DNA from: an uncultured Gammaproteobacteria bacterium
Lineage (GTDB): Bacteria > Patescibacteriota > Microgenomatia > 2-02-FULL-39-11
DNA length: 64,000 bases
NCBI GenBank assembly: GCA_964544585.1
Contig: CAZJBV010000001.1
Location: forward strand, 45,330 to 109,329
Direction of reading: 5' to 3'
Part shown: one piece after another, positions 11,598-47,179 of the stretch
Position numbering within the stretch: position 1 is the stretch's first letter
Layout of the letters: each line of letters begins with the position of its first letter
The notes under the pieces: model-generated
What the model saw: the letters and a program-made list of their open reading frames with translations, nothing else
Told to the model about the DNA's origin: nothing
Databases searched by the model: none
Position numbers and translations under genes: made by a program

Positions 11598-12265
11598 AGT
11601 ATTCCTTCCCGCCGTAAAATCTCTCCAATTTGTTGCATTTTTGCTGATTGTGAGTCGGTTAGGGCTTTTTTTAATTTATCTTTTTCTGCAGAACCTAGAG
11701 CATCCCACTGTATTCTTCCCGTGTCAAATAAATAGTCACGCATATCTTCTGTTGATTTAAACTCCTTGAAATACAAAAAATCAAACAGCGCTTTAAATGG
11801 ATATGCTATCTTGACAGATAAACCCGTAGTACCAAATATGAGTAAGCGGTACCCAGAGTAATAATTGAAAAAATCTTCTTTGAGGCTACGATAGATGAAG
11901 GAAACTTTTTCAGTGTTGTATATACGTGATGATTTTCTTGTCACAGAGGTTATTGCATACGTAGATTCTGGAATAAGATTGTATTTAGAAAGCACATATT
12001 CAAGCGAGACGTATGATGGACTTCGAAGTGTATTGGCAATGTAAAGCCAGTAGAGCTCTGATTGTTCCGGATCTCTGATAAATCCGTCCTGGTATGGCTT
12101 GGAAATATAGAATCCTTTTTTAAGAGGGATTAAATATTGCTCACGGGTGAGCTTTTTGATCCAATAGTTAAGGTCCTCCCCTTCTTTTCCCAGCGCCACA
12201 CCCAGATTTTGTTTCTTAAAGCAGGGTACTTCTGCTAAAGTTGAGATTAGTTGTGCAGTAAGCAT
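11594..12265 (-). CDS. AbiEi-like antitoxin/transcriptional regulator (putative)
   Basis: Position and translational coupling upstream of AbiEii-like NTase; N-terminal helix-rich region compatible with wHTH; weak direct motif support. Confidence 0.45.
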   Translation of the reverse strand: MLTAQLISTLAEVPCFKKQNLGVALGKEGEDLNYWIKKLTREQYLIPLKKGFYISKPYQDGFIRDPEQSELYWLYIANTLRSPSYVSLEYVLSKYNLIPESTYAITSVTRKSSRIYNTEKVSFIYRSLKEDFFNYYSGYRLLIFGTTGLSVKIAYPFKALFDFLYFKEFKSTEDMRDYLFDTGRIQWDALGSAEKDKLKKALTDSQSAKMQQIGEILRREGIL

Positions 12266-12330
12266 ATATTCCAGAATTAGTAAATATTACTACTAATTCT
12301 AGAACAAAATGGGTTAATTGTCAAGTTAGA

Positions 12331-13512: not shown

Positions 13513-13559
13513 AGTGTAAATATATTATTACAAATCTGCACAAATTTGTAAAGTAATGT

Positions 13560-16244
13560 TTACACCCCTAATTGCGGGTAGTGGCATTTTTTCCATTTTT
13601 TACCCGACCCGCACCAGCAGGGGTCGTTGCGGCCGAGTTTTTTATTAGTTTGTGGTTTGTAGTTTGTAGGTTGTAGTTTATCTGCTTGTTTCTGAATGGG
13701 TGTTTGTTGCTCGCGGCGCATTTGTTGGAGTTGGTCCGGAGCGAGCTGGACCTGGACTTTGAATATTCTTTGGGTTATTTCGCTGTCGATTGCGAGAACG
13801 AGTCTTTCAAACATATCAAAGGCCTCATTTTTGTACTCGACTAGTGGGTCTCTCTGGCCATAACCGCGAAGGCCAATGCCTTCACGAAGGGTGTCGATGG
13901 CATCTAGATGATCCATCCAGAGATTGTCAACCACTTGAAGCATGACCCATTTTTCGACCTGCCTGGCTACAGCTTGCGTGAGTTGTTTTTCTCTCTGAAT
14001 GTATACGTCATGAACTAATTTATTTAAAAATAAAATAATATCTTCCTCAGTTTTATTTTGGGCAATTTTTTTGCTTAATTCCTCTTGTGAACGTGGATCA
14101 AAAGGAACAATCGAGGAAAATTCTGTAATAATTTCTTTTCTCTCATTCTCTGAGATACCACTTGCTGAGTGTACAGTAACGATGCGACTAATACTATTTT
14201 CCAGTTTTTCGATTATCATGGATTTGAGATTATTTCCTTCGAGTATTTTTTTTCTTAAGCCGTAAACTATTTCCCTTTGCTTATTGAGGACATCATCGTA
14301 TTCGACCAGATGCTTTCTTGAATCGAAATGAAAACCTTCTACTTTGACTTGGGCTTGTTCTATGGCGCGGCTCACCATGGCATGTTCGAGAGGAACGTCT
14401 TCCGGCAATTTAAAAATAGTCATCAATTTAGCCACTTGATCACCGCCAAAAAGGCGCATAATATCGTCATCGAGGGCAACATAGAATCTGGTCGAGCCCG
14501 GATCTCCTTGTCTTCCCGATCTTCCCCGCAGCTGATTGTCTATCCTTCTTGACTCGTGACGTTCTGTGCCGATGACATGGAGGCCGCCAAAAGAAACTAC
14601 TTCATCATGATTTTTCTGCCATCCATCATGGAGTTGTTTATATTCTTTATTTTTTTCACCACCCTCACTTAAGTATTTATCCGGCGGGAAACCGCCAAGG
14701 ATAATATCGACTCCGCGGCCGGCCATGTTGGTGGCTACAGTTACCGCACCTTTTTTGCCGGCATCGGCGATAAACATGGCTTCTTTTTCATGATTTTTGG
14801 CGTTTAGTAAATTGTGAGGAATGCCTTTTCTTCTTAAGAGTTCTGAAAGATATTCATTTTTTTCAATAGAAGTTGTACCTACTAGTACGGGTTGACCTCT
14901 TTTATATGAATCTTCGATATCTTTGACGACTGCATCAAATTTGGCTTTTGACGTTTTATAGACGCTATCCGGATAGTCGGTCCGTATCATTGGCTTATTT
15001 GTAGGAATTACAACAACATCCAGGTTATATATTTTGTGAAACTCTTCTGCCTCTGTAGCTGCAGTACCGGTCATGCCGGCGAGTTTTTCATACATTCTGA
15101 AATAGTTTTGCAGTGAAACTGTGGCGAGAGTTTTAGATTCCTGCTGGATGGGAACGCCTTCTTTGGCTTCTATGGCTTGATGCAATCCTTCGGAAAAACG
15201 TCGGCCGTGAAGAAGTCTTCCTGTAAATTCATCGACGATAATTACTTGATTGTCTTTGACGACATATTCTTTATCTATGTGGAATAGAGATTTGGCTTTG
15301 AGGGCAGCCTCCATATGATGGACGACTTCAAAATCTTTTTCGTATAGATTTTCTACTCCTAAAAGTTTTTCCACTTTTTCGATACCTTTTTCGGTTAAAT
15401 GAGCGGTGTGCATTTTTTCGTCGACGATAAATGATTCTCCCTCTTGTGAGACTCGATCGATTATTTTGGCATATTCGTAATACTTTTGGGTTGGTTCAGT
15501 ATCGGGAGCAGAAATGATATGAGGTGTACGAGCTTCATCGATCAAGACTGAGTCAACTTCATCAACTACTGCGTAATGGAATCCTCGTTGTGACATCTGG
15601 GAAATGTCGGAAACCATATTGTCGCGAAGGTAATCAAAACCAAATTCGCTGTTGATACCGTAAGTAACATCTGCTTTGTAAGCTTCTTTTCTTGTAATCT
15701 GCTTTAGGTTTCGGAGTCTCCAGTCTGTAGCAGAATTATCAGTAAAATCTGGATCAAATATAAAGGATTGGTCGTGAATAATGGCGGAGACGGAAACTCC
15801 CAAAAGATGAAAAATCGGCCCCATCCAGCCAGCATCACGTCTGGCTAGGTAATCGTTGACAGTGACAAGATGGACGCCTCTTCCGGTCAACGAGTTTAGG
15901 TAGAGTGCGGGAATGGCTGATAGAGTTTTTCCTTCTCCCGTTTTTTGCTCGGCGACGGCTCCTCGATGGAGGGTGTATGCAGCAACTAGCTGGACTTCAT
16001 AATGTTTTTCACCTATGGTTTTTTTGGCTGCTTCTCGGACGAGGGCGAATGCTTCGGGAAGAATATCATCAAGAGTTTCGCCTTTTGCCAGTCGACTTTT
16101 AAACTCGGCTGTTTTTTCCTTGAATTCGTCTTTTTTAAGCTTTGCCATTTGTTCGTCAAGAGAAAGGATCCTATCAATTGTAGGCTTTATTCTAACTATT
16201 TCTTTTTGATTTGCATCGAGGAATCGGGAGAGAAATTTGAACAT
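13560..16244 (-). CDS. secA: Preprotein translocase ATPase SecA
   Basis: 894 aa; DEAD-like motor motifs (GEGKTL, VDEVDS), C-terminal zinc-binding CWCGSGKKWKKCH. Confidence 0.95.
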   Translation of the reverse strand: MFKFLSRFLDANQKEIVRIKPTIDRILSLDEQMAKLKKDEFKEKTAEFKSRLAKGETLDDILPEAFALVREAAKKTIGEKHYEVQLVAAYTLHRGAVAEQKTGEGKTLSAIPALYLNSLTGRGVHLVTVNDYLARRDAGWMGPIFHLLGVSVSAIIHDQSFIFDPDFTDNSATDWRLRNLKQITRKEAYKADVTYGINSEFGFDYLRDNMVSDISQMSQRGFHYAVVDEVDSVLIDEARTPHIISAPDTEPTQKYYEYAKIIDRVSQEGESFIVDEKMHTAHLTEKGIEKVEKLLGVENLYEKDFEVVHHMEAALKAKSLFHIDKEYVVKDNQVIIVDEFTGRLLHGRRFSEGLHQAIEAKEGVPIQQESKTLATVSLQNYFRMYEKLAGMTGTAATEAEEFHKIYNLDVVVIPTNKPMIRTDYPDSVYKTSKAKFDAVVKDIEDSYKRGQPVLVGTTSIEKNEYLSELLRRKGIPHNLLNAKNHEKEAMFIADAGKKGAVTVATNMAGRGVDIILGGFPPDKYLSEGGEKNKEYKQLHDGWQKNHDEVVSFGGLHVIGTERHESRRIDNQLRGRSGRQGDPGSTRFYVALDDDIMRLFGGDQVAKLMTIFKLPEDVPLEHAMVSRAIEQAQVKVEGFHFDSRKHLVEYDDVLNKQREIVYGLRKKILEGNNLKSMIIEKLENSISRIVTVHSASGISENERKEIITEFSSIVPFDPRSQEELSKKIAQNKTEEDIILFLNKLVHDVYIQREKQLTQAVARQVEKWVMLQVVDNLWMDHLDAIDTLREGIGLRGYGQRDPLVEYKNEAFDMFERLVLAIDSEITQRIFKVQVQLAPDQLQQMRREQQTPIQKQADKLQPTNYKPQTNKKLGRNDPCWCGSGKKWKKCHYPQLGV
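13576..13602 (+). repeat. Intergenic repeat copy 4 (gggtagtggcattttttccatttttta)
   Basis: 24-bp perfect direct repeat of copy 1; lies between secA stop and second DUF4143 ATPase start. Confidence 0.85.
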
Positions 16245-34256: not shown

Positions 34257-34285
34257 TTGTCAAGACAATCTTGAGGCTATATAAT
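34257..34285 (+). promoter_or_regulatory. Putative sigma70-like promoter for tRNA-Glu (TTGTCA-17-TATAAT)
   Basis: ggcTTGTCAagacaatcttgaggctaTATAATacc about 28 nt upstream of tRNA 5' end. Confidence 0.35.
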
Positions 34286-35915
34286 ACCTACTGAGGCTAA
34301 ATAAAAGCTTTTTGCCGCCATCGTCTAGTGGCCCAGGACGGTACCTTCTCAAGGTACAAATCGGGGGTTCGAATCCCCCTGGCGGTACCCAGTTCCGACT
34401 TGTCGGGGCCGCCCGCAGGGCGGCCCAAGGTTCGCGCGCGTTACCGCGCGCTATTTTGTGGTTGAGAGTCAGGTTCGAGCCGAAGATTTTTTGGGCCAAT
34501 ACCTTTTTCTGGTATAAATCATTGCCCCTTGCGATGTTTGCCGCGCTAGCGGCATCTATAACCCATGTCCGCATGGGTTCGAGCCAAGCATTTTGCGTTT
34601 GTTCAAATGTTTTTACTTTCTCTTCCAGCGTCTTCTTGATATTTAACAGTTCAGCTTTTTTAAAGCGGTACGTTTCTATATCAATTTCCTGATCCAAATA
34701 AGCATCTAGAAGACGCTGTAACTTGATATTAATATTTTCAATTTCCATTTTTTTCATTTGAACAAACGCTCGGCAGGATTGGGCAGTGTCTTTTTCTTCC
34801 TCTTTGAGTTTAACTAACATTCTATTTGCCCAATCCTGACGTAAAGAAACTTTTTGAATAAGGCTGGATAGCTGCCTATCCAGGACTTCTTCGCGAATAT
34901 AAAGTTCGCGGCAAGAAATTGTTTTGGATTTTTTGGTACACCTATAATAAGTATGGCCTTTTTGAATTTCAGCTGTAATCATCATGCCGCAACTACTGCA
35001 GCGAAGAAGCCGGGCAAATGGTTTGGGGATTCTTCCCTTGTCTTTGATATGTTGGGGCTTACTCCTGTCTTTCAAAACCATTTGCACTTTATCAAAAAGT
35101 TTCTTGGAAATGATGGGCTCGTGGATTCCCTCGTATAATTCTCCACCAAACCGAAAGAAACCGACATAAAACGGGTCGGAAAGTACATATTTAATTCTGT
35201 CTTTATGAAGAGGCTTGTTACCTCTTGAGAAAATACCATGACGAGCCAAAAAGTCAGATATATCTTCAAGTCTTGATTCATTTTGGGCATAGATACCAAA
35301 TGCAAGGGAAATGTAGGGTGATTTAAATTTATCAACTACAATTTTCTTAGTCCTGACATTATTTAGATACCCGATGGGTGCCAGACTGGGAAATTCTCCT
35401 TTTCTTACTTTTTGGCGAAGTCCTCTTTTGGTATTTTCAGAGAGGGAATCCACATAGTACTTACTTTGCCCAAACGCAATATTGAGCATAAATTTACCCT
35501 GCGGAGTGGATTCAAACCAGAATTGGGGAAATTTGAGAAACTTGATTTTACCAGTATCAACTAGATAAATAATCCTTCCTCCATCTATACTATTGCGCGC
35601 AAGTCTATCCGGATGCCAAGCCAAGATACCGGCGGCTTCACCTTTTTCAATTCTCTCAATCATAGAATTGAAAACAGGACGGCCGGGAATCTTGGCCGAT
35701 TGTTTCTCAATAAGTTCCTCAATAATGGAAATTGACTCACGTTTGGCAAATTCCCTAAGCTCCGTAATCTGTGCCTCGATAGATAATACCTGTTTATCCT
35801 CTGTATCTGTAGACTTGCGCGCATACAAAAATAATTTTTGCAGAGTTGGTAATTGAGATCTTAAATACTCTTTTGGAGGTCTTGTTATGAGATTGTTGGC
35901 AGGAGTGGTAATCAT
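34260..35915 (-). CDS. Large serine recombinase (resolvase/invertase catalytic domain + recombinase domain + zinc ribbon + coiled coil); 3' end as drawn reads through inverted repeat and antisense tRNA
   Basis: YARKSTDTEDKQ...SIEAQ catalytic Ser region, zinc ribbon CSSCGMM...YYRCTKK, long coiled coil; C-terminal ~70 aa are Ala/Arg/Pro/Gly-rich translation of GC-rich IR and tRNA antisense, so true C-terminus uncertain. Confidence 0.75.
   Translation of the reverse strand: MITTPANNLITRPPKEYLRSQLPTLQKLFLYARKSTDTEDKQVLSIEAQITELREFAKRESISIIEELIEKQSAKIPGRPVFNSMIERIEKGEAAGILAWHPDRLARNSIDGGRIIYLVDTGKIKFLKFPQFWFESTPQGKFMLNIAFGQSKYYVDSLSENTKRGLRQKVRKGEFPSLAPIGYLNNVRTKKIVVDKFKSPYISLAFGIYAQNESRLEDISDFLARHGIFSRGNKPLHKDRIKYVLSDPFYVGFFRFGGELYEGIHEPIISKKLFDKVQMVLKDRSKPQHIKDKGRIPKPFARLLRCSSCGMMITAEIQKGHTYYRCTKKSKTISCRELYIREEVLDRQLSSLIQKVSLRQDWANRMLVKLKEEEKDTAQSCRAFVQMKKMEIENINIKLQRLLDAYLDQEIDIETYRFKKAELLNIKKTLEEKVKTFEQTQNAWLEPMRTWVIDAASAANIARGNDLYQKKVLAQKIFGSNLTLNHKIARGNAREPWAALRAAPTSRNWVPPGGFEPPICTLRRYRPGPLDDGGKKLLFSLSRYYIASRLS
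34314..34387 (+). tRNA. tRNA-Glu (anticodon CUC)
   Basis: Cloverleaf readable: acceptor GCCGCCA/UGGCGGU, D-arm TCGTCTAGTGGCCCAGGACG, anticodon stem GTACC/GGTAC with loop TTCTCAA (CTC), T-arm GGGGGTTCGAATCCCCC; CCA not encoded. Confidence 0.85.
34386..34485. repeat. IR1 left copy: ~100-bp GC-rich inverted repeat starting at the tRNA-Glu discriminator base
   Basis: acccagttccgacttgtcggggccgcccgcagggcggcccaaggttcgcgcgcgttaccgcgcgctattttgtggttgagagtca... reverse-complement of 36106..36200; contains internal palindromes GGCCGCCCGCAGGGCGGCC and GCGCGCGTTACCGCGCGC. Confidence 0.9.
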
Positions 35916-36105
35916 GAGCTAAGGAGTACTATACTTTTTCCTTCAAAATTTTCAATATGACTTAATGAATCAAACATAAGCAAAAAATTCTTTTTGTTCG
36001 TTTGCACGTAAAAAATGCTGATGCATTTTTCAGTGTAAAGGCAAAGTTTCCCCCACTATTTAGTGGGGGACAAATAACATCGCAAGGGGCAATTAATTAA
36101 AATTC

Positions 36106-36200
36106 TTCGGCTCATGACTCTCAACCACAAAATAGCGCGCGGTAACGCGCGCGAACCTTGGGCCGCCCTGCGGGCGGCCCCGACAAGTCGGAACTGGGTA
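36106..36200. repeat. IR1 right copy (inverted), abutting IR2
   Basis: Reverse complement matches 34386..34471 perfectly, then 4-5-nt indel, then gagccgaag matches again. Confidence 0.9.
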
Positions 36201-36387
36201 AGCCTTTACAGTTACGCTCGAAACTATTTTATAAATAATTCTTAGTATTATAAATAAAATGTTGCGATGAGGAAAAGGGGTAAAGGGGAAAAGGAATCAT
36301 CGCAACATAAACCTTATTGCTCGGCCGCTTCGCGGCCTCGCATTATCCCAGGCCTCTCCTTCTCATTCTCTCTTTGGGAAATTTTCG
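36199..36387. repeat. IR2 left copy: ~190-bp inverted repeat bounding the cargo module
   Basis: Reverse-complement of 45440..45629 essentially perfect over ~190 bp; internal palindromes (gttgcgatga...tcatcgcaac; GGCCGCTTCGCGGCC). Confidence 0.9.
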
Positions 36388-36569
36388 AAATTTTTTAAAG
36401 CCTTCTTATAGGTCGCTAACGAGAATATTTATTAGAAAAAGGAGAATATTTTGTCAGAAATATCATGAAAATAGCAAAATACTAGCTACCATATAAAACT
36501 GTCAACAAACGCATAGCTTCATAATTATTTTTACTGTCTTTATCTTTCCAAAGTTTTTCGGTCATAAAA

Positions 36570-39500
36570 TCAACTGGCATTATTTTTAAGCCATGTTTGT
36601 TTAAAGTCGTAGTATTTAGGATTTCTCTCCATGAGCCCAGCAAACAATTTTTCTACTTGCTCTTTGTGGGTTTTAATAGAAGTTAAGTATTCGACTGCAA
36701 CATCAAGGTCGTTTGCAATTAACAGATCAGTTGGATAATCAACGAGTTTTTTAAACCAACGTAAAAATTCTTGGTTGCCTTTTACCTGCGCAATTTTTAC
36801 CAATATTTTTCCATTATAGAAGAATGGCCACCAATACATGTCAGGAAGATTATCTTTAGTATAGTTATCTTTAAAATACTGATACTCCGTTTCAATACAT
36901 TTCTTCCAAAGGTCAAAACACACATCAAAATGTTCTTCAATATAATCCTCAACAAAACGATAGATATTCTCAAAAGTCCTGTGGTCGTAGGTTACTGTCA
37001 TATACTCAAGATAATAAGCGGCGAGTTTTACAGCATCTTCAAACTTCGGTGTATCTTTTACCTCATGGGGTATACGTACCATTTGCCAAGCAAAAATTTG
37101 CTTAATTTCTGGATCACCACTTTTTACCAGACTAATCAATAATTTCTTAAAGGGTCTGTCATCAAACTTTCCTAGTGGTTCCCAGTCCTTTGGCCAGTCC
37201 TTGAAAGATTGTATTCTGTATTCAGCAAAAAATATGTATAATGGTGCTGCTTCGCTTAATACATCTGCTAAATATGATTCATGTCCTCTTTGTTTGTCTT
37301 TTTTAGGATACTCATTTTTAAGAAATATTTGTAAAACTTCAAATGCCTTCTTTTGATCTATACTTCTCATGTAAGTAAACACCATCGCCAAATGTTTCAT
37401 AATGGCAGGTAATTCGTGATTAACCAAATCACGTAGCATCAAAAAAGCTAAATCCTCTATTTTCTTAGAAATTTCAACTTGCAGAAATCTCTCTTTTCTA
37501 TTATCTGGAAGCACAGTGTTACGATTTTTTACTAACTCTAAAAGGGGAATACAAGATTGTAATCGTACATAATAATTTTTATCCTTAGTTAGCTTTTCAA
37601 CTAGAGGTAGAATTGCAGGTATATGTTTTCTTCCATAAAGAGTCGCAAATTTTTGTAAAACCCACGCGCAGTAACCTCTGACAGAACCAATTGATAAGTC
37701 ATCTTCACCGCCTATAATTTTTTGATGTCTATTAAAATTACCTTCTGGATCATCAAAGTAATTCTCAAGTATAGGATCGCTATCTTTTATAAAAATATTT
37801 AGTATGTAAAGAGTCTCATCAAACAATTTTACTTCGGCCAGTTTTTCAGCAAACTGTACAATTTGCTCTCTTGAGTGTCGGTTCGTAATTCTTTCTTCAG
37901 TTTTTGATATGTCATCGCCTAGGTTTTGTAAGAACGGGTATACAAAATCTTTATAAACCCCTTGGATTACTTCTTTGTTTTCTTTTGGTAAATCGTTTAT
38001 TGAACTGCAAATTAGAATTTGTTGATTTAATGTAAGAGTTCTTGAAGAGCCCACTTCTTTTAAAATGCTTACTCCAATACCCAGGTTTTTGACTATAATC
38101 TTGGCAAGATTTTTAGCCACCTCCCATGTCTCCCAATCGTCATCCTTCTTAACAAATTCATCGCTTGTGATGTAACTTATAAAAATCTTAACACCCTCAT
38201 CAAAAGTTTCTGGATTATCTAAAAGTTTAGAGATATTACCCATTACATTAAACGAACCTATGGTTTGTCTTTTGTGATATTCGGGATTCGTTATCCAGCT
38301 TGCGATAATAGCAGCTGCTTCTTTGTGCCTTTCTGCCGCCAAATCTGAAGTTATTTGCTCAACAAAAACGTTAGCCGATAAATTATTATATTCATCAAGA
38401 CTGACTTTTATTAGCGCCCACTTTTGCTCTTTTGTATAATCACCTCTCAATTCTTGGAATATTAAGTCTGCTTTCCATGGAATACCTTTTCTCATTCTTA
38501 CGAAGTCGCTTAAAATGTCAAAGGCTTCGGAGCTATGTTTACCACCTTTATATTCTGCAAAAATAACTGGAATTGAAGCACGATTGAGGAAATCTGGCTT
38601 ATTACTAGAAACATCACTTATTTTCCTAGCTATACAATTTTTGATAATAAACTTCCAATTCTTTTCACTATTTTTGTATAGTTCTTGCAAAGCTGGTCTG
38701 ATAATGTATCTTACAAAGTGGTTGTCTAAGATCGAAAAATTACTACCTGATTGAGAAATTCCGCTACCTGCTAAATCCCATCCATCAAACTTCCATTTCA
38801 AGCGAAACCTACCATAAAAATTATTGTAATGCTTCACACAAAGCTCTTTAAACCAAATAATCCTTTCTTCCGGATTTTCTATTACATAATCTCTAAAAAT
38901 CTCGAAAATAGCGGTAGGGGTATAATGCCAGTACTCCCCATGATCTTCTATAAGATTGAAAGTTTTACTTAGGTATTCAATAATTTCTTCTTTAAGTTTT
39001 CTATCTTTTGTATCTTGATATAGTTTTGTTAATAATTTACTAATTTTCTCTCTTTCCCATTTATCGTCTCTATGTCTTGATTTTTTTTCGGTATAGAAAA
39101 AGTCACTGATACTCGGACTAAATAATTTCTTAATCACTTCAAAAACTTTGCGATTAAGCTTAGGATTTACATCTAAAATTTTTTGACACAGTCGTGCAAT
39201 ATCAGTTTTGATAAATTCTTCTCTAAAGAAGTTGTAACTTCCGTCTTCCAGCACTTTATCTGCAAAATCCAGCGAGTATTCTTGATTATCTTTTGTAGGT
39301 AAGTTGTTTTCAAATATTTGAAATAGGTGCACAGAAAATGCGCTCTTAACTGTAGCCTCCCATAGATTATCCCATTGACTTAAATTTAAGTTTTGCTTGT
39401 CTTTGAGTCTCATCAACGCGTAGTAAAATTCCGAAGGGAGATTAGAAAGTTCAGAAATCTTATTGTTAGCCCATTTTTTCTTCTCTGGATTTTCTATAGC

Positions 39501-40178
39501 TTCAATAAGCCCTTTGATGTCTTTTTCGGCAGTTTGTCTCTCTTTTTCATAACCTGCGTCTTCAAGTATTTGAGTTTTTCTTTTATCTAGTTTCTTCAAA
39601 AAAACCTCGGCTGTTAAAGTCTTCCCTGCTGCCGATCCATCGTACACTTCCTGTTTAACAAGATGATCTCTTATTTCCTCCAGTGTATGTTTTGGGACCC
39701 AAACCTGAAGAAGTTTTGCGACTAAAAGCTCTACTATTTTTTCACTCATTTCTTTTGGAACCTCCCAAATTTTTAACTGTGCCAAAAGTTCAAAATGATA
39801 ATCTTTAAAATTGTGTGGTTTTTTGGCGAGCCTCTCTCTTACTCGATCTTGAAAGTATTTATAATTTTCAATATCGTTCTTAGCAGATCTATTTACCCCT
39901 TTGCAAATAATCACTATTTCATCCTGTTTGGTTACTTGGCCGTGCTCGTGAATTTTATCGAGAATATCTCTAATATCTGCGTAGTTTAAAATTGAGTCTT
40001 TTGATTCACAAATTATTTTTCGGCCATCCTCAAAGACCAAATAAAAATCTTCAAGCTTGTCACCTTCAAAACCAATATATCTAAAATCTGAACGTTTAAC
40101 ATATTGAAGAAACAGCGACATAGCTGCCCAAGCTTGGGCATTAACTCCTTTAACGTTATATTGACCCTGCTTACTCAT
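36570..40178 (-). CDS. 1202-aa protein: N-terminal restriction-endonuclease-like (PD-(D/E)xK) domain followed by ~1000 aa of alpha-helical (HEAT/ARM-like) repeats
   Basis: N-terminal LEDFYLVFEDGRKIICESKD (D...ExK); remainder helical repeat composition (e.g. LPLVEKLTKDKNYYVRLQSCIPLLELV); start overlaps stop of upstream 209-aa gene (ATGA). Confidence 0.5.
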   Translation of the reverse strand: MSKQGQYNVKGVNAQAWAAMSLFLQYVKRSDFRYIGFEGDKLEDFYLVFEDGRKIICESKDSILNYADIRDILDKIHEHGQVTKQDEIVIICKGVNRSAKNDIENYKYFQDRVRERLAKKPHNFKDYHFELLAQLKIWEVPKEMSEKIVELLVAKLLQVWVPKHTLEEIRDHLVKQEVYDGSAAGKTLTAEVFLKKLDKRKTQILEDAGYEKERQTAEKDIKGLIEAIENPEKKKWANNKISELSNLPSEFYYALMRLKDKQNLNLSQWDNLWEATVKSAFSVHLFQIFENNLPTKDNQEYSLDFADKVLEDGSYNFFREEFIKTDIARLCQKILDVNPKLNRKVFEVIKKLFSPSISDFFYTEKKSRHRDDKWEREKISKLLTKLYQDTKDRKLKEEIIEYLSKTFNLIEDHGEYWHYTPTAIFEIFRDYVIENPEERIIWFKELCVKHYNNFYGRFRLKWKFDGWDLAGSGISQSGSNFSILDNHFVRYIIRPALQELYKNSEKNWKFIIKNCIARKISDVSSNKPDFLNRASIPVIFAEYKGGKHSSEAFDILSDFVRMRKGIPWKADLIFQELRGDYTKEQKWALIKVSLDEYNNLSANVFVEQITSDLAAERHKEAAAIIASWITNPEYHKRQTIGSFNVMGNISKLLDNPETFDEGVKIFISYITSDEFVKKDDDWETWEVAKNLAKIIVKNLGIGVSILKEVGSSRTLTLNQQILICSSINDLPKENKEVIQGVYKDFVYPFLQNLGDDISKTEERITNRHSREQIVQFAEKLAEVKLFDETLYILNIFIKDSDPILENYFDDPEGNFNRHQKIIGGEDDLSIGSVRGYCAWVLQKFATLYGRKHIPAILPLVEKLTKDKNYYVRLQSCIPLLELVKNRNTVLPDNRKERFLQVEISKKIEDLAFLMLRDLVNHELPAIMKHLAMVFTYMRSIDQKKAFEVLQIFLKNEYPKKDKQRGHESYLADVLSEAAPLYIFFAEYRIQSFKDWPKDWEPLGKFDDRPFKKLLISLVKSGDPEIKQIFAWQMVRIPHEVKDTPKFEDAVKLAAYYLEYMTVTYDHRTFENIYRFVEDYIEEHFDVCFDLWKKCIETEYQYFKDNYTKDNLPDMYWWPFFYNGKILVKIAQVKGNQEFLRWFKKLVDYPTDLLIANDLDVAVEYLTSIKTHKEQVEKLFAGLMERNPKYYDFKQTWLKNNAS

Positions 40179-40180
40179 AA

Positions 40181-40810
40181 CTAGATGACCCCACTTTCTA
40201 CCTCGGAAGATATTGGTAGTGTAATACCGTTTATATTGGTATCTTTATGTGAAATAATTTTTTGACAAAATTCTTCAAAGTTATCGCAAGAGAAAACATA
40301 AGTTTTACCGATCACCGGACTAAAGTCATGTATTAGTGTGCGCACAACTTCACTTAGTTTATTCAGATCAAAAACTCTAAAATTTCTGAATTTTTTATCT
40401 GCAAATACCTCTGAAGCAAGATAATCATTTGCATCTCTGTTAATGTTGCCGTTACAGATAAAGTAGAATTCTTCAATGTATACTTTTAATGAAAAATCTA
40501 TAGGAGAGGAGAGGGGAATATCTAAAGCTTCTTCTATGGCTCCCTTAAATGATCTAATGTCATTGTTTCCGCTTTTTGTTATATCACCAGCTTTTATAAA
40601 AACGCAACAATGTCGAGCTTTTTTGAATAAGTCTTTATAAGAAAAGTATAAATCCTTACCCTTTTCGTTCCGGCCATGCATATCAACAACTGGATGTGCA
40701 CCCATAGCTTTTAATAAAGGGATGAGTATTTTTATCCTAAGATCGTCTTCGAGAAGCTCTCCTAATAGTGTCTGAACATCTTTAACCATCTGTATTTTTT
40801 TCAACCACAT
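40181..40810 (-). CDS. Mrr-cat-like (type IV restriction endonuclease catalytic domain-like) small protein
   Basis: LLKAMGAHPVVDMHGRNEKGKD...CVFIKAG resembles Mrr catalytic core (LLEAMGY...D...QCK); translationally coupled to 1202-aa gene. Confidence 0.4.
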   Translation of the reverse strand: MWLKKIQMVKDVQTLLGELLEDDLRIKILIPLLKAMGAHPVVDMHGRNEKGKDLYFSYKDLFKKARHCCVFIKAGDITKSGNNDIRSFKGAIEEALDIPLSSPIDFSLKVYIEEFYFICNGNINRDANDYLASEVFADKKFRNFRVFDLNKLSEVVRTLIHDFSPVIGKTYVFSCDNFEEFCQKIISHKDTNINGITLPISSEVESGVI

Positions 40811-41047
40811 TGGTTTCTTCCTGCCTAAGGCCGTAGAGTTTATAAACTAACTCATCAATCTGCCGTTCGTGGCCGAGTGCTTGGTGCTTATCTTTTTCCA
40901 AGATGGTTTTCTTCCAGTCAGATGATAGTGCTTATATATAGGCTTGTCAATTGATCTAAAAAGAGGTAAAAGGATTCAGTATGAAATTCTCATGAGGTAT
41001 AATAATCAAATATAGTAAAGAGTTTAGTTTTACTAATATTTATTACA

Positions 41048-42475
41048 ATGATCGAAGCGACATTATCTCGGGGTCCACTACCTGATCAGTTCGGTCAACC
41101 AGAGCGAAGCGTTGCTTCTCCCAAAATAATATTTCTGCATGGATATACTTCATCCCCACAAAAAGATTGGTATCCAACTATTTCCAGGCAATTAACTACC
41201 ATGGGTATTGATCATGACATACCTGAATTACCAGGAGGAGAACACCCAAATCCACAAGAATGGATAGAAGCGATAGATAAAGAAGTAAAGTCTTTGGATG
41301 GTCGACCCTTTGTTCTTGTAGGTCATAGTTTAGGAGCAAGAGCTGCTCTTTTGTATCTTAAAGACAAAAAACCTGCAAATCTTGAAGGGTTATTTCTTGT
41401 ATCACCCCCAGCTAATCGAACAGAGGATTACAATGTAAAAGGTTCCCAGGGATTCGGTGATTTTTTCAAAGAAAAAATTGATATTTCTGAAATTAAGCCG
41501 TTGATAAAAAGAAAACCAGCAGTAATACACTCACCTACTGATCCAGATGTTCGAGTTGAGCAAGCAAGGGAATTAGCTGATGAATTAGGTGCCAGATTTA
41601 TTAGCATTCCCAATCGTGGCCACTTTAATGATGAATTTCATCCAGAAATGGATGCAGAGGAAATTTTAGATGTAGTTTATCATCAATTAAATAGTACACC
41701 ACTTCCTAAAGAATTTGAAGATAAAAATGTTCACTTTGGTATTTGGGGAGTAATTGGAGGTAATAATGATAGAAAATTAGACAGTTTGGAACCATTTAGG
41801 CAAAATATAGAAGCCAAAGGTATAGAAGCACTTAGAAAAATTACTGATGCTATGCCGATACATGATTTAGAGGTGGGGATTTATGATACTACTCGCCATA
41901 TTATCAGAGAAGAAGGAATGGGCGGATTTGCATGGGGTGATCATAATCGAGCTATGATTTTTTTTAATACGGAGTTGCCTGATGATGTGATAAAAAACGC
42001 AATAGAAAAATATATGGTTAGAACAGTGGCACATGAAGTGGATCATATAATGAGGATGAAAGAAGTTGGATTGCCCACCACACTTTTTAAGTCATTTATT
42101 TTAGAAGGACTCGCACAGCATTTTTCGGAAGAAATTGAGCCTGGTGATCATCCTTTGTATGCGGTTGCATTGCAGGATCCTGCACAAATCCATAATTTAC
42201 TTTTGAAGGCTCAACCAGAGTTTGATATAGACCTTACGGAGGAAGACTATAAAGAAAATGGCAGATATGATCAGTGGTTTTTTGGTAGAGGTACGACTGA
42301 AATTCCCAGATGGACTGGGTATACATTAGGGTATCAGATAGTTGGTGAATATTTAAAAGATCATCCTGGTTCTAAACCATCTACTGTTTATAATGTACCA
42401 GATGAAGACTTTCGTCCTTATATTGAAAAGGTTCTGGCAACAACAGAACAAAGTATACAGAAAAATAAAGATTAG
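41048..42475 (+). CDS. Fusion: RBBP9/YdeN-type alpha/beta serine hydrolase + HExxH zinc metallopeptidase-like domain
   Basis: N-terminus IIFLHGYTSSPQKDWYP with GHSLG nucleophile elbow; C-terminus VAHEVDHIMR (HExxH) plus downstream EGLAQHF. Confidence 0.55.
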   Translation: MIEATLSRGPLPDQFGQPERSVASPKIIFLHGYTSSPQKDWYPTISRQLTTMGIDHDIPELPGGEHPNPQEWIEAIDKEVKSLDGRPFVLVGHSLGARAALLYLKDKKPANLEGLFLVSPPANRTEDYNVKGSQGFGDFFKEKIDISEIKPLIKRKPAVIHSPTDPDVRVEQARELADELGARFISIPNRGHFNDEFHPEMDAEEILDVVYHQLNSTPLPKEFEDKNVHFGIWGVIGGNNDRKLDSLEPFRQNIEAKGIEALRKITDAMPIHDLEVGIYDTTRHIIREEGMGGFAWGDHNRAMIFFNTELPDDVIKNAIEKYMVRTVAHEVDHIMRMKEVGLPTTLFKSFILEGLAQHFSEEIEPGDHPLYAVALQDPAQIHNLLLKAQPEFDIDLTEEDYKENGRYDQWFFGRGTTEIPRWTGYTLGYQIVGEYLKDHPGSKPSTVYNVPDEDFRPYIEKVLATTEQSIQKNKD

Positions 42476-42756
42476 TTTTTAAAAAACTGAGAAAATCGCA
42501 ACTTATATAAACTCTCCAAGAAATCTGATCCGGCATAGCCAGCCAATAGAGACATTCTCCAATCTGCGTTGGCAATAAGGCCAGCCATTTGGCCTGTAAT
42601 TATAGAGACAATTATGGTAATTGCAAAATATTTCCACTGAAACTTAAATTTTTCGGGATCGAATTCTTTAGCTTTGGTGATACCGACTACTGCACGGACT
42701 AGACCTCCCATACCTCCCGCCAGAAATTGAAACGCTGTTATTTGAAAATCCATCAA
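42472..42756 (-). CDS. Small 2-TM membrane protein (holin-like, speculative)
   Basis: 94 aa with two hydrophobic helices and charged C-terminus. Confidence 0.3.
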   Translation of the reverse strand: MMDFQITAFQFLAGGMGGLVRAVVGITKAKEFDPEKFKFQWKYFAITIIVSIITGQMAGLIANADWRMSLLAGYAGSDFLESLYKLRFSQFFKN

Positions 42757-42780
42757 TAATCACCTCCTATTTATACTATT

Positions 42781-43227
42781 TTAAGAGATATTTTTACTGT
42801 AAATAATATAATCCTGATGGTCATGATGATTGAAATGTTCTCCGGTTTTTACAAACCCGAGAGATTCATAAAACTTGGATGTTCTTTTAGTTTTTGAAGT
42901 ATTGAGAAATATTTTATGGGCTTTGAGTGATTGAGCTATCTTTATAGCTTCTTTTACAAGTTCGGTTCCAATACCCTGTCTGTGCTTTTCGTGTTTCACG
43001 ATTAGGCTTTCAATTCTGACTACTCCTGCCATGAGAGATAATTCTAAAAAACCTACCATTGTCCCGTTTTCTGTTGCTTTTAGAATCTTTCTTTGCTTTG
43101 TCCAATCTATTTTGGTACCAAACTCCTCCAGGTCTGCCAGTGCCCATTCTTTCTTTTGAAATTCTTCTATCTCTTTGGTGGTTTGATTGATTTCCTGTAT
43201 GGATATCATATGTTTTGTTTTGACCAA
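42781..43227 (-). CDS. GNAT-family N-acetyltransferase
   Basis: Acetyl-CoA binding motif HRQGIGTELV and GNAT fold length (148 aa). Confidence 0.75.
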   Translation of the reverse strand: MVKTKHMISIQEINQTTKEIEEFQKKEWALADLEEFGTKIDWTKQRKILKATENGTMVGFLELSLMAGVVRIESLIVKHEKHRQGIGTELVKEAIKIAQSLKAHKIFLNTSKTKRTSKFYESLGFVKTGEHFNHHDHQDYIIYSKNIS

Positions 43228-43766
43228 ATTCCTAACTTTTTTGATTTTGCTTCTTTTTCTGCAGATAATAATTGTTGCTGATAAATAAGTGGTTTTCTTT
43301 TTTCGTATATTGTAACTTTGGCTAATCCTCTTTTTGCCAACTCAATCGCAAGATTTTTGTCACTAATAATAATGTATGCAAGAATTCTTCCGAATCTGTC
43401 TGATTTATACTCATCGTATTCAATATTTACTTTTTTTCCTTCAACGAGTCTTTTAGCAAATTCTGTAGACTCTTCATCAAAAGGTTGTCCGTGATCCGGA
43501 GTATTTACTCCGACAAGTCGGACGATTTGTCCGTTTTGTAATTCGAGAGTATCCCCATCTATGACTCTTTTGATTTTGGCTTCTTTGGGAAACTCTATGA
43601 CTTGACTGGAGTTTATAATAGGCTGGTTTTCAATCGCATCTTTAATCTCACTTTCATACTTAGTCCCTGCAAAAAATGAGGAGAATGATAAAAGCAGGGC
43701 AAGAGGAATAAGGACATATTTGTTTTTATTTGACTTTTTGTTTTGGGGTTTGGATTTTGGTTTCAT
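43206..43766 (-). CDS. Thermonuclease / staphylococcal nuclease (SNase) homolog, secreted
   Basis: N-terminal signal anchor; SNase core VIDGDTLEL...VRLVGVNTPD...RFGRILAYI. Confidence 0.75.
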   Translation of the reverse strand: MKPKSKPQNKKSNKNKYVLIPLALLLSFSSFFAGTKYESEIKDAIENQPIINSSQVIEFPKEAKIKRVIDGDTLELQNGQIVRLVGVNTPDHGQPFDEESTEFAKRLVEGKKVNIEYDEYKSDRFGRILAYIIISDKNLAIELAKRGLAKVTIYEKRKPLIYQQQLLSAEKEAKSKKLGIWSKQNI

Positions 43767-44853
43767 AAAGTGTATTTTGCCCCACCTCGAATACCCTGTT
43801 GTTTGAGTAATCCCTTCTTTTCCAGTTCAGTCAGATAGTTAGTGGCAGTGCTTTGAGATACTCGACATAATCTTTGCACATCGGTGTTGGTTATGGTTCC
43901 CGTTTCTTTGATAAAGAGCATGATTTTATCTAAGTTTTTCTGTCTTTTGTTGAGTCTTTTTGCGTTGGCTTTCTGGCGAAGAGAGGATATGCCTTCCTTC
44001 GCTGAAGCTTCGGCGGCTAAAGGAGATTGGGGTAATGGGGGAGATGGGGGAATTTGGGGAGTAACCGCAGGAGATGGCTTCGGTGGGACGATGGGTTCTA
44101 TATTTATTTTTGGTTCATCCTGCAGGGACTGGTCTAATTGGGAGGGAGAGGTGTTTCCATGCAAGATATCTCCAAACGAAGATGGCTTGGGAAGAATAGA
44201 AGGAGCAGAAGAAATAGGAGGATTTGATGAAGATGGCGGATTTTCTTTCGCTAGGATCTCGCCGAAAGAGCTTTTGGGAGAGGTGGGAGGCTTAATTTCT
44301 TCTGTTTTTTGAGAATTGCCATTGGCCAATGGAGCGTTCTGGACTGGTTTTGGTGGCTCAGTCTTGATATTGGCCAAGTCGGGAGGAACTTGAAATGTTG
44401 TATTTATAGATGCACTATCTGACGGGCCGGATTGCACTTGAGACGGTGCAATTGGAGTAGTAGTGACAGAAACGGGAGGTGTAGAAATGTCGTTAGGAGA
44501 TGAAGGAGATTGGGGTAATGGGGGAGATATGGGAGAGTCGGAATCGTCCGATGAGGACGGATTGGCCAGATTGGAGGAAGATGTAATCTCGGTGGGTTTC
44601 GGCTCAATCGATGGTGGAGCAACATGGCCAGAATCCGTAGCCGTCTGATTGGTCAAGTCTGGATGAGCCGAACTATTATTGGCCAATGGAGTTTCTACTG
44701 ATTGGCCAGATGTTGATGCTTCCTTGGGAGCCTCATTGGCCATTTTGGTGGAAATTGGCCAAGTGGGATCAGATGTATTGGCCAATTGTGAATCGGCCAG
44801 CTTATCCTGAACTTGGCCAATAATACTTCCTTGCTGGAACTGATCATCAGCCA
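43763..44853 (-). CDS. Pro/Ser-rich low-complexity protein with C-terminal winged-helix DNA-binding domain
   Basis: Likely start MADDQF (44853) rather than ORF-track start; C-terminus ITNTDVQRLCRVSQSTATNYLTELEKKGLLKQQG is wHTH-like; internal ~30-bp direct repeats encode PISPPLPQSP repeats. Confidence 0.45.
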
Positions 44854-44975
44854 TATTAAATCCAGTATACAACAAAGTAAATGGCCAAGTGATTGGCCAA
44901 CACAAAAAGCAACATGGCCATTTTGGTGGAAATTGGCCAAGTGGAAAAAATAATTGGCCAAGTAATAATCGCCAG
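44680..44975. repeat. Dense cluster of ~13 ATTGGCCAA (TGGCCA palindrome) motifs incl. a 28-bp direct repeat
   Basis: TGGCCA occurs about 13 times in ~300 bp spanning the 5' end/upstream region of the wHTH gene; ccattttggtggaaattggccaagtgg repeated at 44738 and 44917. Confidence 0.8.
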
Positions 44976-44999
44976 TGGTCACCCACCCGTGCAATGCTC

Positions 45000-45420
45000 T
45001 CATGATGACACCGATGGAATACAAAGAGGGGTCATCGCACGGGGGGTGAAGGAATTTCTCCCCCGAGTGCCACGGGCACACCGGAAGCACGGGGTAGGGG
45101 GACCCCCGTGAGTGCAAACCCAGAGGACGAAGTCCGACTGGATGCACGAACGGAGGGAGACCCCCCGTGGGAAGTGATTGGAAAATACCTCTGAGGGAAC
45201 CAGGCTCTATAGCACTACGGGCACGGCAGGGGGTACGTGCGAAAAACCTATGACCTGATATAACAGAGAAACTCTCACAGTCTCCAAAAGCGAACCCCAC
45301 TGGCGACATATATAAATGTATATTTGGGAGTACCTTGTTGTTGTCCGCGGATGGGATGGGTGCCCATAAAAAATCGCTGAGGCGATTTTTCAGGGTAAAG
45401 GCCAAGGACAACTACAAATA
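45000..45420. other. GC-rich, hairpin-dense, apparently non-coding ~400-nt region (candidate structured RNA or cis-acting DNA site) ending in a bidirectional terminator-like hairpin
   Basis: Local GC far above window average; many stable stem-loops (GTGCCACGGGCAC; CACGGGG...CCCCGTG; GTGCA...CCAG..GGACGAAGTCC..CTGG..TGCAC); overlapping ORFs have implausible Pro/Gly/Trp/His/Cys-rich composition; aaaatcgctgaggcgatttt hairpin at about 45370-45395. Confidence 0.35.
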
Positions 45421-45439
45421 ATTTCCCCTTACCTTATAA

Positions 45440-45629
45440 CGAAAATTTCCCAAAGAGAGAATGAGAAGGAGAGGCCTGGGATAATGCGAGGCCGCGAAGC
45501 GGCCGAGCAATAAGGTTTATGTTGCGATGATTCCTTTTCCCCTTTACCCCTTTTCCTCATCGCAACATTTTATTTATAATACTAAGAATTATTTATAAAA
45601 TAGTTTCGAGCGTAACTGTAAAGGCTTAC
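45440..45629. repeat. IR2 right copy (inverted)
   Basis: cgaaaatttcccaaagagagaatgagaaggagaggcctggg...tagtttcgagcgtaactgtaaaggcttac is the reverse complement of 36199..36387. Confidence 0.9.
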
Positions 45630-47179
45630 AAAGTCTCTGCGTCTCTTTTAGTTATAACCGTAAATTTATAGGGGCTAGATTTGTTTGAAAAGTAGGCAGT
45701 ATTGGGTAATTGTTCAATATCCTGACCAAAATAGTACTTTAAAATCAAGCGAAAAGTATTTACTGGAGTTATTTCTGGGTATATTAGTTTATCCCCTCCG
45801 AGAGGTAAGTAATAAGCATTGAGGATGGCCATTTTTTGTCTCTTTTCTTCTTCTGTTGCATTTTTCCAATCAAAATTCAGTTCACCTTTTCTGTATGCTT
45901 CCGGGTATGGTCCTTCATCGCCCTGAATAATTATAATGGGTGGATTTTCTTTTGATTTTTCCATGATCGTGTTTACCAATTCCTGTATTTTTTTATTGGC
46001 GAATACTATTTGTTCCTCATAGTTTCTTTTTTCACTTCTTTTATCCGTTTCCTCCTGACTTAAGCAATTTCCATCTTTGTCAAAGACATATGGTTCATGC
46101 GTTAGGAGAAAATGAGCAAATGTAAACGTAGGTTTTGAAATATCAGGCACTTTGGCAATTTCGTCAAACTTGTAGTAAGGTCTTTTGCAGTGAGTGAGCC
46201 GGCTATTAAAAAGCGGGATATTTAGCTTTATTGTAAGTGGATGAAATAATGATTTGCTATACACAATCTCTGAAAACTCAGAGAGCGAAGGCAAATTAAT
46301 ATTTTTATCTGCATTTCTATTCCAGGCCGTTGGACCCCACCATGAGCCGGCATGGATATAGAGATAACCATTTGATTTTAGAAATCTTAAGACAGAATAA
46401 TCCTCAATAAGATCAATAAGGGGTCTAATATCATCTGATTGTCTACCTAAAGATTTTATTAGATCGTCATGATATTCCATATTCAAAGATGAGGATAATG
46501 ATAATTGAGTTTGGGTATAATTTGCCCATGATTTTTGGGGAATAGAAAAATTGCTATCCTGTAGAAACTTTATAAATTGAGAATTGTCAAACTGGTACAC
46601 ATTTTCTAAAATATCGCTTCTTCCATAACGGTCGAATACAAAATAGTAAATATCAGGAGGATTTTTCTGATTTGAGCTGGTCACCTGCCAGGTATATGTT
46701 TTTTCATTCACAGCATAATTCAAAGAATATAATATGTCATATTTTATTATTTCGAAAAGAGATGGAATTAAGAGTGCAATTCCAATAAAGTTAGATATCA
46801 GCATTATCGATATTAGATTGGATTTACTCTTAAGGATTAGGTAGCTTGTTAAGAAAATTATTGCTATTGCAGCAATAAAACCAGGGGTTTGTTTTCCTTG
46901 GAGAAGACTATCTAAAGGTGACTGCCGAAGCAAATCAAAAATATGCCCGTAGCTTAGAATGACTAGTGCTGAGAGGGAAACAATAAGTGATGATTTATAA
47001 ATATTCTTTATAAATATATTCAGAAGAGCAAAGACAAACAAGGTACAGGCCACAATAAAAAATAGAGGCAAAAAAATGCCTGAAATGTGAATTCCTGTAA
47101 TGTTGTGGCTGTAGATAAAAAAGATAGGATAGGAAGAAATAAGAATGGGAAGGAGGATGGGAAATAAATTTTTTCTCAT
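45626..47179 (-). CDS. Membrane-anchored sulfatase/alkaline-phosphatase-superfamily protein (LTA synthase / phosphotransferase-like)
   Basis: N-terminal ~5 TM helices; extracytoplasmic sulfatase-like domain (YYFVFDRYGRSD...); 517 aa. Confidence 0.55.
   Translation of the reverse strand: MRKNLFPILLPILISSYPIFFIYSHNITGIHISGIFLPLFFIVACTLFVFALLNIFIKNIYKSSLIVSLSALVILSYGHIFDLLRQSPLDSLLQGKQTPGFIAAIAIIFLTSYLILKSKSNLISIMLISNFIGIALLIPSLFEIIKYDILYSLNYAVNEKTYTWQVTSSNQKNPPDIYYFVFDRYGRSDILENVYQFDNSQFIKFLQDSNFSIPQKSWANYTQTQLSLSSSLNMEYHDDLIKSLGRQSDDIRPLIDLIEDYSVLRFLKSNGYLYIHAGSWWGPTAWNRNADKNINLPSLSEFSEIVYSKSLFHPLTIKLNIPLFNSRLTHCKRPYYKFDEIAKVPDISKPTFTFAHFLLTHEPYVFDKDGNCLSQEETDKRSEKRNYEEQIVFANKKIQELVNTIMEKSKENPPIIIIQGDEGPYPEAYRKGELNFDWKNATEEEKRQKMAILNAYYLPLGGDKLIYPEITPVNTFRLILKYYFGQDIEQLPNTAYFSNKSSPYKFTVITKRDAETL

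Follow-up and report, generated by a model that had tools for sequence, protein, structure and literature searches.

One integrated element with a split and an intact attP repeat: a proposed reading of a tRNA-abutting serine recombinase locus in Patescibacteria

Why should a recombinase gene next to a tRNA gene lie between one pair of long inverted repeats, and a second pair directly beside it enclose 9 kb of cargo? We address this question in a 64,000-nt stretch of a Patescibacteria genome (GenBank assembly GCA_964544585.1, contig CAZJBV010000001.1, positions 45,330 to 109,329; hereafter the window), in which the gene for a 551-aa large serine recombinase (LSR) abuts tRNA-Glu(CUC). A preliminary description of the window regarded the locus as a tRNA-abutting, LSR-driven integrative element with a layout that departs from standard insertion sequence (IS), Tn3, integron and prophage arrangements, and our analysis agrees on both counts. 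It also regarded the two repeat pairs, IR1 and IR2, as the ends of two adjacent modules, a view that we replace here. We conclude, with a probability of roughly 0.8, that positions 34386–45629 constitute one integrated 11.2-kb element from an LSR family of the Patescibacteria (candidate phyla radiation, CPR), and that the inverted-repeat pairs reflect the two halves of a split attP repeat, each matched against an intact internal copy.

The anatomy of the locus is directly visible. The tRNA gene at 34314–34387 was recovered by both Rfam (61.5 bits) and ARAGORN (34313–34391), as described earlier, and is the only tRNA in the window; an Rfam scan of 33–47 kb returned nothing else. IR1, previously given as ~100 bp, is a genuine pair with a shorter perfect arm: the repeat finder reports 86 nt with 100% complementarity (34386–34471 and 36115–36200), and the pairing reaches ~34538 and 36076 when indels are allowed. 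For IR2, the repeat finder gives 195 nt at 99% (36193–36387 and 45440–45634), of which the truly common part, judged by eye, is 36198–36387 and 45440–45629, corroborating the earlier ~190 bp and its position abutting IR1. Besides these two pairs, the window contains no inverted repeat of at least 35 nt. What had been taken for the ends of two modules is instead one ~310-bp composite repeat that occurs twice in inverted orientation, with one copy split and the other intact at 36076–36387 (Table 1).

The recombinase is an LSR as first reported, and its 3' end required correction. The catalytic domain (PF00239, E = 2.9e-22, residues 29–174) is accompanied by the two DNA-binding domains (DBDs) PF07508 (Recombinase, DBD1) and PF13408 (zinc ribbon, DBD2), and domain order and size place the protein among the LSRs, not in the invertase or IS607 clades, a placement that the preliminary description had left to be made. 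The catalytic motif YARKST takes the form YxRxS[TS] in 158 of 161 family members, and the LSR matches without interruption in 138 of 160. The nearest solved structures, both weak sequence matches, are the SPbeta (9dxh) and A118 (4kis) integrases, and the AlphaFold 2 (AF2) model of a homolog (P0060) displays long helices at 338–385 and 391–418 after the zinc ribbon. The open reading frame (ORF) crosses the left IR1 arm, which on the minus strand encodes LSR residues ..SNLTLNHKIARGNAREPWAALRAAPTSRNWV, and then runs antisense through the tRNA. The final ~75 codons are thus made up of the left IR1 arm and the antisense tRNA strand, and the final ~42 of antisense tRNA and flank, in place of a native tail described below. 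A search for homologs returned thousands of proteins from Patescibacteria at 55–76% identity, of which we examined the top ~120 together with 161 surveyed loci. They all have a common C-terminal stretch, ..FGSNLxLxxKxARGxAxxxWAALRAAPxSR.., past which they enter the antisense translation of differing tRNAs (..GFEP.., ..GIEP.., ..GVEP..). Because the homologs run into different antisense tRNAs, abutting a tRNA 3' end is a trait of the family and not of this locus. Separately, six homologs (P0004, P0006, P0009, P0011, P0045 and P0117) are 865–932 aa long, ~400 residues above the family norm, and one of them also matches PF07697; these may be read-through fusions with neighbors or tandem LSRs.

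With X denoting the IR1-type arm and Z the IR2-type arm, we wrote out the tRNA–X, internal Z–X and Z–flank junctions for 15 loci. Only tRNA nucleotides 72-73-74 are common to all three, sometimes with an additional CA, giving a shared length of 3–6 nt with a minimum of N72-N73-C74. This core is TAC in the window and CAC, CTC, CGCAC or CCACCA elsewhere. The window junctions read ..ggcgg-TAC-ccagttcc.. (tRNA–X), ..aaaggct-TAC-ccagttcc.. (internal, reverse strand) and ..aaaggct-TAC-aaagtctc.. (Z–flank). Judged from sequence, such a set is what LSR exchange between an attB (tRNA-core-flank) and an attP (Z'-core-X) would produce if an inverted, intact attP were retained inside. The half-sites are consistent with this assignment. 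Of 71 loci, 52 have the T-loop sequence TCGAA at +16 from nucleotide 73 in the tRNA half-site, and 40 have it at +20 in the Z half-site. Owing to this placement 4 bp further from the core, Z corresponds to a P-type form of the tRNA half-site, and the offset agrees with the 4–5 bp by which LSR DBD2 motifs lie nearer the center in attB than in attP (PMC11722253). A T-loop motif in the half-sites may be the reason why many tRNAs can serve as targets.

The coding content of Z links the two repeats to one gene. In ~40 loci, the LSR frame read from X' through the core into Z yields a 13–16-aa tail and a stop codon. Examples are ELYNSARTFFERN, YIYDFARTYFIKNS and WLYNEVRTYFTENS, each followed by a stop, with (NWV)SLYSYARNYFINNS and a stop in the window, where an LSR bearing the native tail would end ..NWVSLYSYARNYFINNS. 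Codon variation within the tail is synonymous (Leu CTT/TTA/CTG/TTG, Arg CGA/CGG/AGA, Thr ACT/ACA/ACC/ACG), indicating that it is conserved as protein, and the stop codon varies among TAA, TAG and TGA. Since the core is followed by this conserved tail and its stop in the LSR frame, the native LSR gene crosses the attP core, and Z, which encodes them, is part of the LSR gene. Six database homologs (P0022, P0023, P0046, P0055, P0056 and P0060) end in the native tail, which forms a helix in the AF2 model of P0060 with block-mean predicted local distance difference test (pLDDT) values of 87 for residues 491–500 and 69 for residues 481–490. Positions 36076–36387, comprising IR1 and IR2, accordingly read as an inverted spare copy of the LSR gene 3' end.

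A closed form of a family member was also observed. The 16,641 nt of the Hainich groundwater contig ERZ1292625.2540 (L118) repeat exactly with a period of 8,416 bp, and a comparison of 8,225 positions gave 0 mismatches. The contig carries no tRNA, and its LSR ends in the native tail. The LSR lies between two complete 304-nt inverted repeats (X plus Z, 99.7% identical), with X and Z contiguous on both sides, and the contig includes the Z'-core-X junction expected under the model proposed here. Its cargo includes a diversity-generating retroelement (DGR) with a reverse transcriptase (11235–12314), bAvd (12222–12611) and a 616-aa candidate target (12684–14534). As a further feature of this contig, a 2.5-kb sub-segment is enclosed by a direct repeat that involves a third, partial copy of distal Z (155 nt).

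In the proposed model, the LSR gene body and a variable cargo would be the two unique segments of the closed circle, and two copies of the ~310-bp repeat, inverted relative to each other, would lie between them. Each copy would represent the LSR 3' end, namely its last ~30 codons (X'), the core, ~15 tail codons and a hairpin-rich 3' untranslated region (UTR; Z); with the repeat being the 3' end of the gene, attP would fall inside the LSR ORF. Recombination by the LSR would join one of the attP copies to a tRNA gene at its 3' end, the crossover falling within tRNA nucleotides 72–74 and probably proceeding as a 2-bp exchange. Integration would split the copy that was used, placing its X half beside the tRNA and its Z half at the far end. 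From the X half, the tRNA would gain CCA-like bases and a terminator. The LSR would exchange its tail for antisense-tRNA junk, a loss that may change LSR activity. Because each split half pairs with the intact internal copy, IR1 seems to surround the recombinase and IR2 the cargo. The circle (or tandem) junction would read ..GTAAAGGCT-TAC-CCAGTTCC.. (Z'-TAC-X), where the LSR frame continues into Z, and the restored empty attB would be ..GGCGGTACAAAGTC.., or ..CTGGCGG-TAC-AAAGTCTC.. in junction form. The internal copy may act as a reserve, providing an intact 3' end and attP to which an inversion of the LSR segment could join the gene again.

The X arm itself is structured, in line with the preliminary description of the terminal repeats. 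The 8-bp GC hairpin GGGCCGCCC-GCA-GGGCGGCCC is kept family-wide and covaries, with compensatory changes at 6 of 8 pairs among 27 diverse sequences. In the window, GCGCGCG-TTAC-CGCGCGC followed by TATTTT scores as a terminator directly past the tRNA. A T-loop-like decamer, GGTTCGAGCC, has two further copies in the LSR 3' region, at 34472–34481 and 34576–34585 (104 nt apart), which on the coding strand correspond to the conserved FGSNL and WLEP motifs. In most family members the first of these copies forms the inner edge of IR1 and, on that basis, may be an accessory binding site.

The same repeats could instead delimit two tandem elements, a 1.8-kb IS-like IR1-LSR-IR1 unit with a palindromic attP and a non-autonomous, IR2-bounded cargo mobilized in trans. 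Each segment does have its own terminal inverted repeats and the same core at its junctions, one locus (L047) has an LSR unit between two tRNA genes without Z, and L118 has its extra partial Z copy. We nevertheless judge this arrangement improbable, given that at least 88 loci from many phyla and tRNA targets have Z beyond the upstream IR1 arm, and that Z encodes the LSR tail and stop and so belongs to the LSR gene, and is contiguous with X on both sides of the LSR in L118. Moreover, neither Z-cargo-Z' nor X-only units turned up on their own.

The single-element reading extends to the family as a whole, for which we surveyed 161 loci (80 from GTDB genomes, 80 from JGI metagenomes and the window). 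A convergent tRNA gene adjoins the LSR 3' end in 135 of these, representing 31 anticodons and 14 amino acids. An IR1-type repeat (median 114 nt, median identity 98.8%) surrounds the LSR gene in 131, and most loci counted without one have no upstream sequence. The Z motif is conserved past the upstream arm at the loci already mentioned, and upstream sequence of at least 2.5 kb is available for 47 loci, 34 of which have an IR2 partner 1.3–9 kb away. The geometry that raised our question, IR-LSR-IR beside IR-cargo-IR, is the standard layout of this family. Whole elements range from 3.4 to 11.2 kb, the window element being the largest seen. Their cargo is unrelated from locus to locus and includes restriction-modification genes with XRE/C-protein-like helix-turn-helix (HTH) proteins, HydE/F/G-like (Hyd maturase-like) proteins, the DGR, tRNA-synthetase-like genes, a GT39-like protein and permeases. 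No gene is common to the cargos of 15 loci, except for a small XRE-type HTH protein present in 5. The family elements surveyed contain no phage or conjugation genes, and the lack of LSR relatives in IMG/VR leaves a phage origin without support. In two metagenome-assembled genomes (MAGs), a pair of family members occupies different tRNA genes (L007 and L014 in JAUXSN01; L011 and L015 in CAYIXE01). Tandem accretion is suggested at another locus, where the sequence past attR (L042:3000–3040) resembles an X arm belonging to a further element.

Long inverted repeats invite suspicion of assembly error, and the preliminary description named chimeras at the repeat edges, or ordinary miniature inverted-repeat transposable element (MITE) insertions unrelated to the recombinase, as grounds for abandoning its view. 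Short-read assemblies do break at inverted repeats: many related contigs measure 1.6–4 kb only or end 120–140 nt past IR1, and k=31 Logan contigs stop ~26–30 nt into Z'. Set against this, dozens of independent assemblies contain the architecture with host DNA on both sides, and a second assembly of the same organism (GCA_016186845.1, L163) has the order and orientation of the window at 100% identity, so the layout of two repeat-bounded segments is not an assembly chimera. The window holds no further, solitary copies of IR1 or IR2, and both coding and att features are conserved in the repeats. Neither ground for abandonment applies, and we consider an artefact or MITE origin extremely improbable. 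The short contigs suggest that family elements routinely fragment short-read CPR assemblies. The sole difference between the two assemblies is that L163, at position 3798, lacks 61 nt of window 36340–36400 at the inner end of the left IR2 arm; this could be a real polymorphism or an assembly difference at a repeat edge.

The preliminary description also proposed, as one of two possibilities, that both segments are recombinase-invertible. The geometry permits either to flip, and comparative evidence points the same way. In L161, where an LSR 76% identical to that of the window lies at tRNA-Glu(UUC), a cargo block comprising the 94-aa, SNase and 407-aa Pro/Ser-rich winged-HTH (wHTH) proteins is shared with the window (L161:6500–8700 and window 42470–44990; 65–77% aa identity). 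The block is in opposite orientation there and beside the inner Z arm, and in the window it is beside the outer arm, as flipping of the cargo segment would give. IR1 of L161 is decayed (88%), and no IR2 partner is detectable. In addition, the tRNA adjoins the LSR 5' arm in ~3% of loci (L035, L045, L046 and L074), as in a flipped LSR. These observations could also be taken to mean that the repeats are mainly Hin/Gin-like inversion switches that control expression by phase variation, with integration secondary. We regard this as unlikely: the enzyme is a 551-aa LSR rather than a ~190-aa invertase, the repeats span 86–300 bp as opposed to ~26-bp hix-like sites, orientation is skewed, with the LSR toward the tRNA in 135 of 161 loci, and the closed form and many tRNA targets speak for mobility. 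Furthermore, the cargo differs wholly between loci, leaving no common gene to be regulated. The invertible geometry of the earlier claim therefore stands and the Hin-type switch does not, with inversion at most a possible purpose of the repeats. A separate case is L047:9748–11575, where an LSR unit without Z lies between convergent tRNA genes (Val and Leu) at a contig end, as expected from cassette exchange or a tRNA-to-tRNA inversion.

Several observations weigh against the reading of a single element with a split and an intact attP. The 3-nt identity at the junctions is compatible with a 2-bp core and does not fix the dinucleotide within it. As to the empty site that the preliminary description recommended looking for, the reconstructed attB for tRNA-Glu has 0 exact matches in JGI metagenomes, and a related strain (L165) has another gene context (L165:1–1052 versus window 34165 onward). 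With an identical GreA, L165 has a Dus (dihydrouridine synthase) gene 25 nt upstream of greA and no tRNA; it is not an empty site, and its sequence departs from the window at a rearrangement breakpoint close outside the tRNA promoter. L118, for its part, may represent a tandem array and not a free circle. The four loci with a flipped LSR all stop at contig ends, where an assembly phasing error is possible. About 97% of integrated copies have a truncated LSR, a skew that may arise if the 3' copy is used preferentially or if copies that retain an intact LSR are unstable. Finally, no recombination directionality factor (RDF) was identified in the cargos of 15 loci, where the diversity of RDFs leaves their absence unproven.

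The exchange of a conserved C-terminal helix for junk raises the question of whether integration rewrites the recombinase. We tentatively consider a joint scheme, which we think more apt to be wrong than right, in which this rewriting acts as an RDF-free directionality or lock switch combined with rebuilding from the spare copy and T-loop recognition. The tail-bearing LSR would integrate, and the tail-less LSR would be inert or excision-competent. Inversion of the LSR segment would use the spare 3' end and attP to rebuild the full-length gene in the integrated state, and the spare attP could also reach a second tRNA site, leading to cassette exchange or chromosomal inversion. If the LSR recognizes the T-loop motif common to all tRNAs, the use of at least 31 different tRNA genes by a single LSR family would be explained. 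A different role for the repeats, with two inverted attP copies pairing in single-stranded DNA as a duplex attP, was discarded since double-strand exchange on a hairpin would cap the chromosome ends.

Other element classes were also considered and rejected. MITEs or solitary repeats do not fit the absence of any other copy in the window or the flanking of the LSR by repeats in 131 of the 161 loci. IS607 was set aside on the order of domains (catalytic first, then LSR DNA-binding domains), the presence of long inverted repeats and the lack of TnpB in a domain search of the window ORFs, and the Tn3 family on the lack of a transposase domain in any ORF of the element in the same type of search. 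A Hin/Gin-type invertase does not agree with 551 aa, LSR domains and repeats of 86 and 190 nt, and an integron was ruled out on domain content and repeat distribution.

Compared with known LSR integrases, the element has much in common and several departures. Like phiC31, Bxb1, A118/LI, SPbeta SprA, TnpX/TndX and CcrAB, it encodes Resolvase, Recombinase and zinc-ribbon domains with long coiled-coil helices, and its attP and attB likewise have a short common core with an outer motif 4 bp further out in the attP-type half-site. In contrast to these systems, it targets the extreme 3' end of many tRNA genes, carries attP inside the recombinase ORF, duplicates attP in inverted orientation within a ~310-bp repeat, measures 3.4–11.2 kb and has no conserved RDF genes. 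An attP inside the integrase gene, which integration then disrupts, is established for the SSV-type "suicidal" integrases of archaea (PMC7253208). The likeness is that attP lies within the gene, with the LSR here losing a conserved C-terminal helix; SSV-type elements use a tyrosine recombinase and a single attP, whereas this family uses a serine recombinase and retains an unsplit second copy of the 3' end and attP in inverted orientation. In Myxococcus phage Mx8 (IntP/IntX) and in mycobacteriophages with integration-dependent immunity, attP also lies within a gene, the recombinase is of the tyrosine type and there is a single attP.

The yeast 2-micron plasmid carries FLP/FRT in 599-bp inverted repeats, where flipping serves copy-number amplification. 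Like the closed form in L118, it has two unique segments between long inverted repeats that contain the recombinase target, with the recombinase gene in one of them. FLP, however, is a tyrosine recombinase on a replicating plasmid; the LSR elements are integrated at tRNA genes and have no replication gene that we could see, a domain search of the cargos of L118 and the window finding no replication protein domain. Hin, Gin, Cin and Pin resemble the element in pairing a serine recombinase gene with inverted repeats that make inversion geometrically possible, and differ from it in having small invertases, short hix-type sites, a Fis enhancer and no integration. Tycheposons and other tRNA-targeting islands are small cargo-carrying islands at tRNA genes that diversify streamlined genomes. 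Classical tRNA islands use tyrosine integrases and create direct repeats of the tRNA 3' part, whereas the junctions described here share only 3–6 nt and the element is flanked by inverted repeats.

Few mobile elements have been recognized in the tiny genomes of Patescibacteria. In one full-text library, our literature search found neither an LSR family that targets tRNA 3' ends in Patescibacteria nor a duplicated inverted attP, and the family is apparently undescribed so far. It seems to be widespread and active in Patescibacteria as a carrier of accessory genes, and CPR MAGs probably break at its elements during assembly. Recognition of a feature common to all tRNAs, an attP in the LSR's own ORF and a built-in second attP could together reveal how serine-integrase directionality is controlled without an RDF. 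The family could also supply compact integrases for conserved tRNA sites in genome engineering.

Table 1. Positions of the element, its parts and adjoining features in the window.
Feature	Position	Strand	Remarks
Promoter-like TTGTCA-17-TATAAT, 5' of tRNA	34257..34285	+	Consensus match only
LSR, 551 aa, integrated state	34260..35915	-	Resolvase, Recombinase and Zn_ribbon_recom matches
tRNA-Glu(CUC)	34314..34387	+	3' end (T-arm, acceptor) is the proposed attB left half-site
IR1 left arm (X)	34386..34471	+	Proposed P'-type half of split attP copy; imperfect extension to ~34538
attL crossover region TAC	34386..34388	+	tRNA nt 72, 73, 74; from junction comparison
Two GC-rich hairpins in X arm	34406..34451	+	Terminator scan; covariation
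Promoter-like TTGAAA-16-TATAGT, LSR gene	35928..35955	-	Consensus match only
IR1 right arm (X')	36076..36200	+	Perfect from 36115; proposed first half of intact internal attP copy
Core GTA of intact internal attP copy	36198..36200	+	Reverse complement of TAC; from junction comparison
IR2 left arm (Z)	36198..36387	+	Tail-coding part, then hairpin-rich 3' UTR-like region
Spare copy of native LSR tail SLYSYARNYFINNS and stop	36201..36245	+	In frame with X' arm; holds T-loop-like GCTCGAA
Cargo segment, 9,052 bp	36388..45439	.	Between IR2 arms
Largest cargo gene, 1202 aa	36570-40178	-	No Pfam or PADLOC family match; sub-threshold HEAT match only
209-aa ORF	40181-40810	-	
Ser_hydrolase+DUF2268	41048-42475	+	
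94-aa membrane protein	42472-42756	-	
GNAT	42781-43227	-	
SNase	43206-43766	-	
Pro/Ser-rich wHTH protein, 407 aa	43763-44986	-	C-terminal winged-helix domain
238-aa ORF	44695-45411	-	Overlaps wHTH ORF; may not be a real gene
IR2 right arm (Z')	45440..45629	+	Proposed P-type half of split attP copy; attR core TAC 45627-45629
Sulfatase-like host gene	45626..47179	-	TAA stop overlaps attR core (45626-45629)

The flanks are chromosomal on both sides, with GreA, LysW/LysX and an ArgC-like gene on the left and the sulfatase-like gene and an LCP-family gene on the right. Within the cargo, domain searches agree with the nucleases, GNAT, hydrolase-protease and HTH protein listed in the preliminary description (SNase, GNAT, Ser_hydrolase+DUF2268 and HTH), and PADLOC returned an SNase-like match and weak HTH matches only, with no recognizable defense system. 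The GC-rich structured region described at 44.0–45.0 kb turns out to be the Pro/Ser-rich, low-complexity coding part of the 407-aa wHTH protein. This N-terminal part holds the GGGGA and TGGCCA repeats, and repeats lie within the gene at 44020–44069, 44494–44536, 44737–44766 and 44915–44944. In the reconstructed empty site, the sulfatase-like gene would extend 12 codons into the antisense strand of the tRNA. The wHTH gene also contains a perfect 30-nt direct repeat, TGGCCATTTTGGTGGAAATTGGCCAAGTGG, in two copies 178 nt apart.

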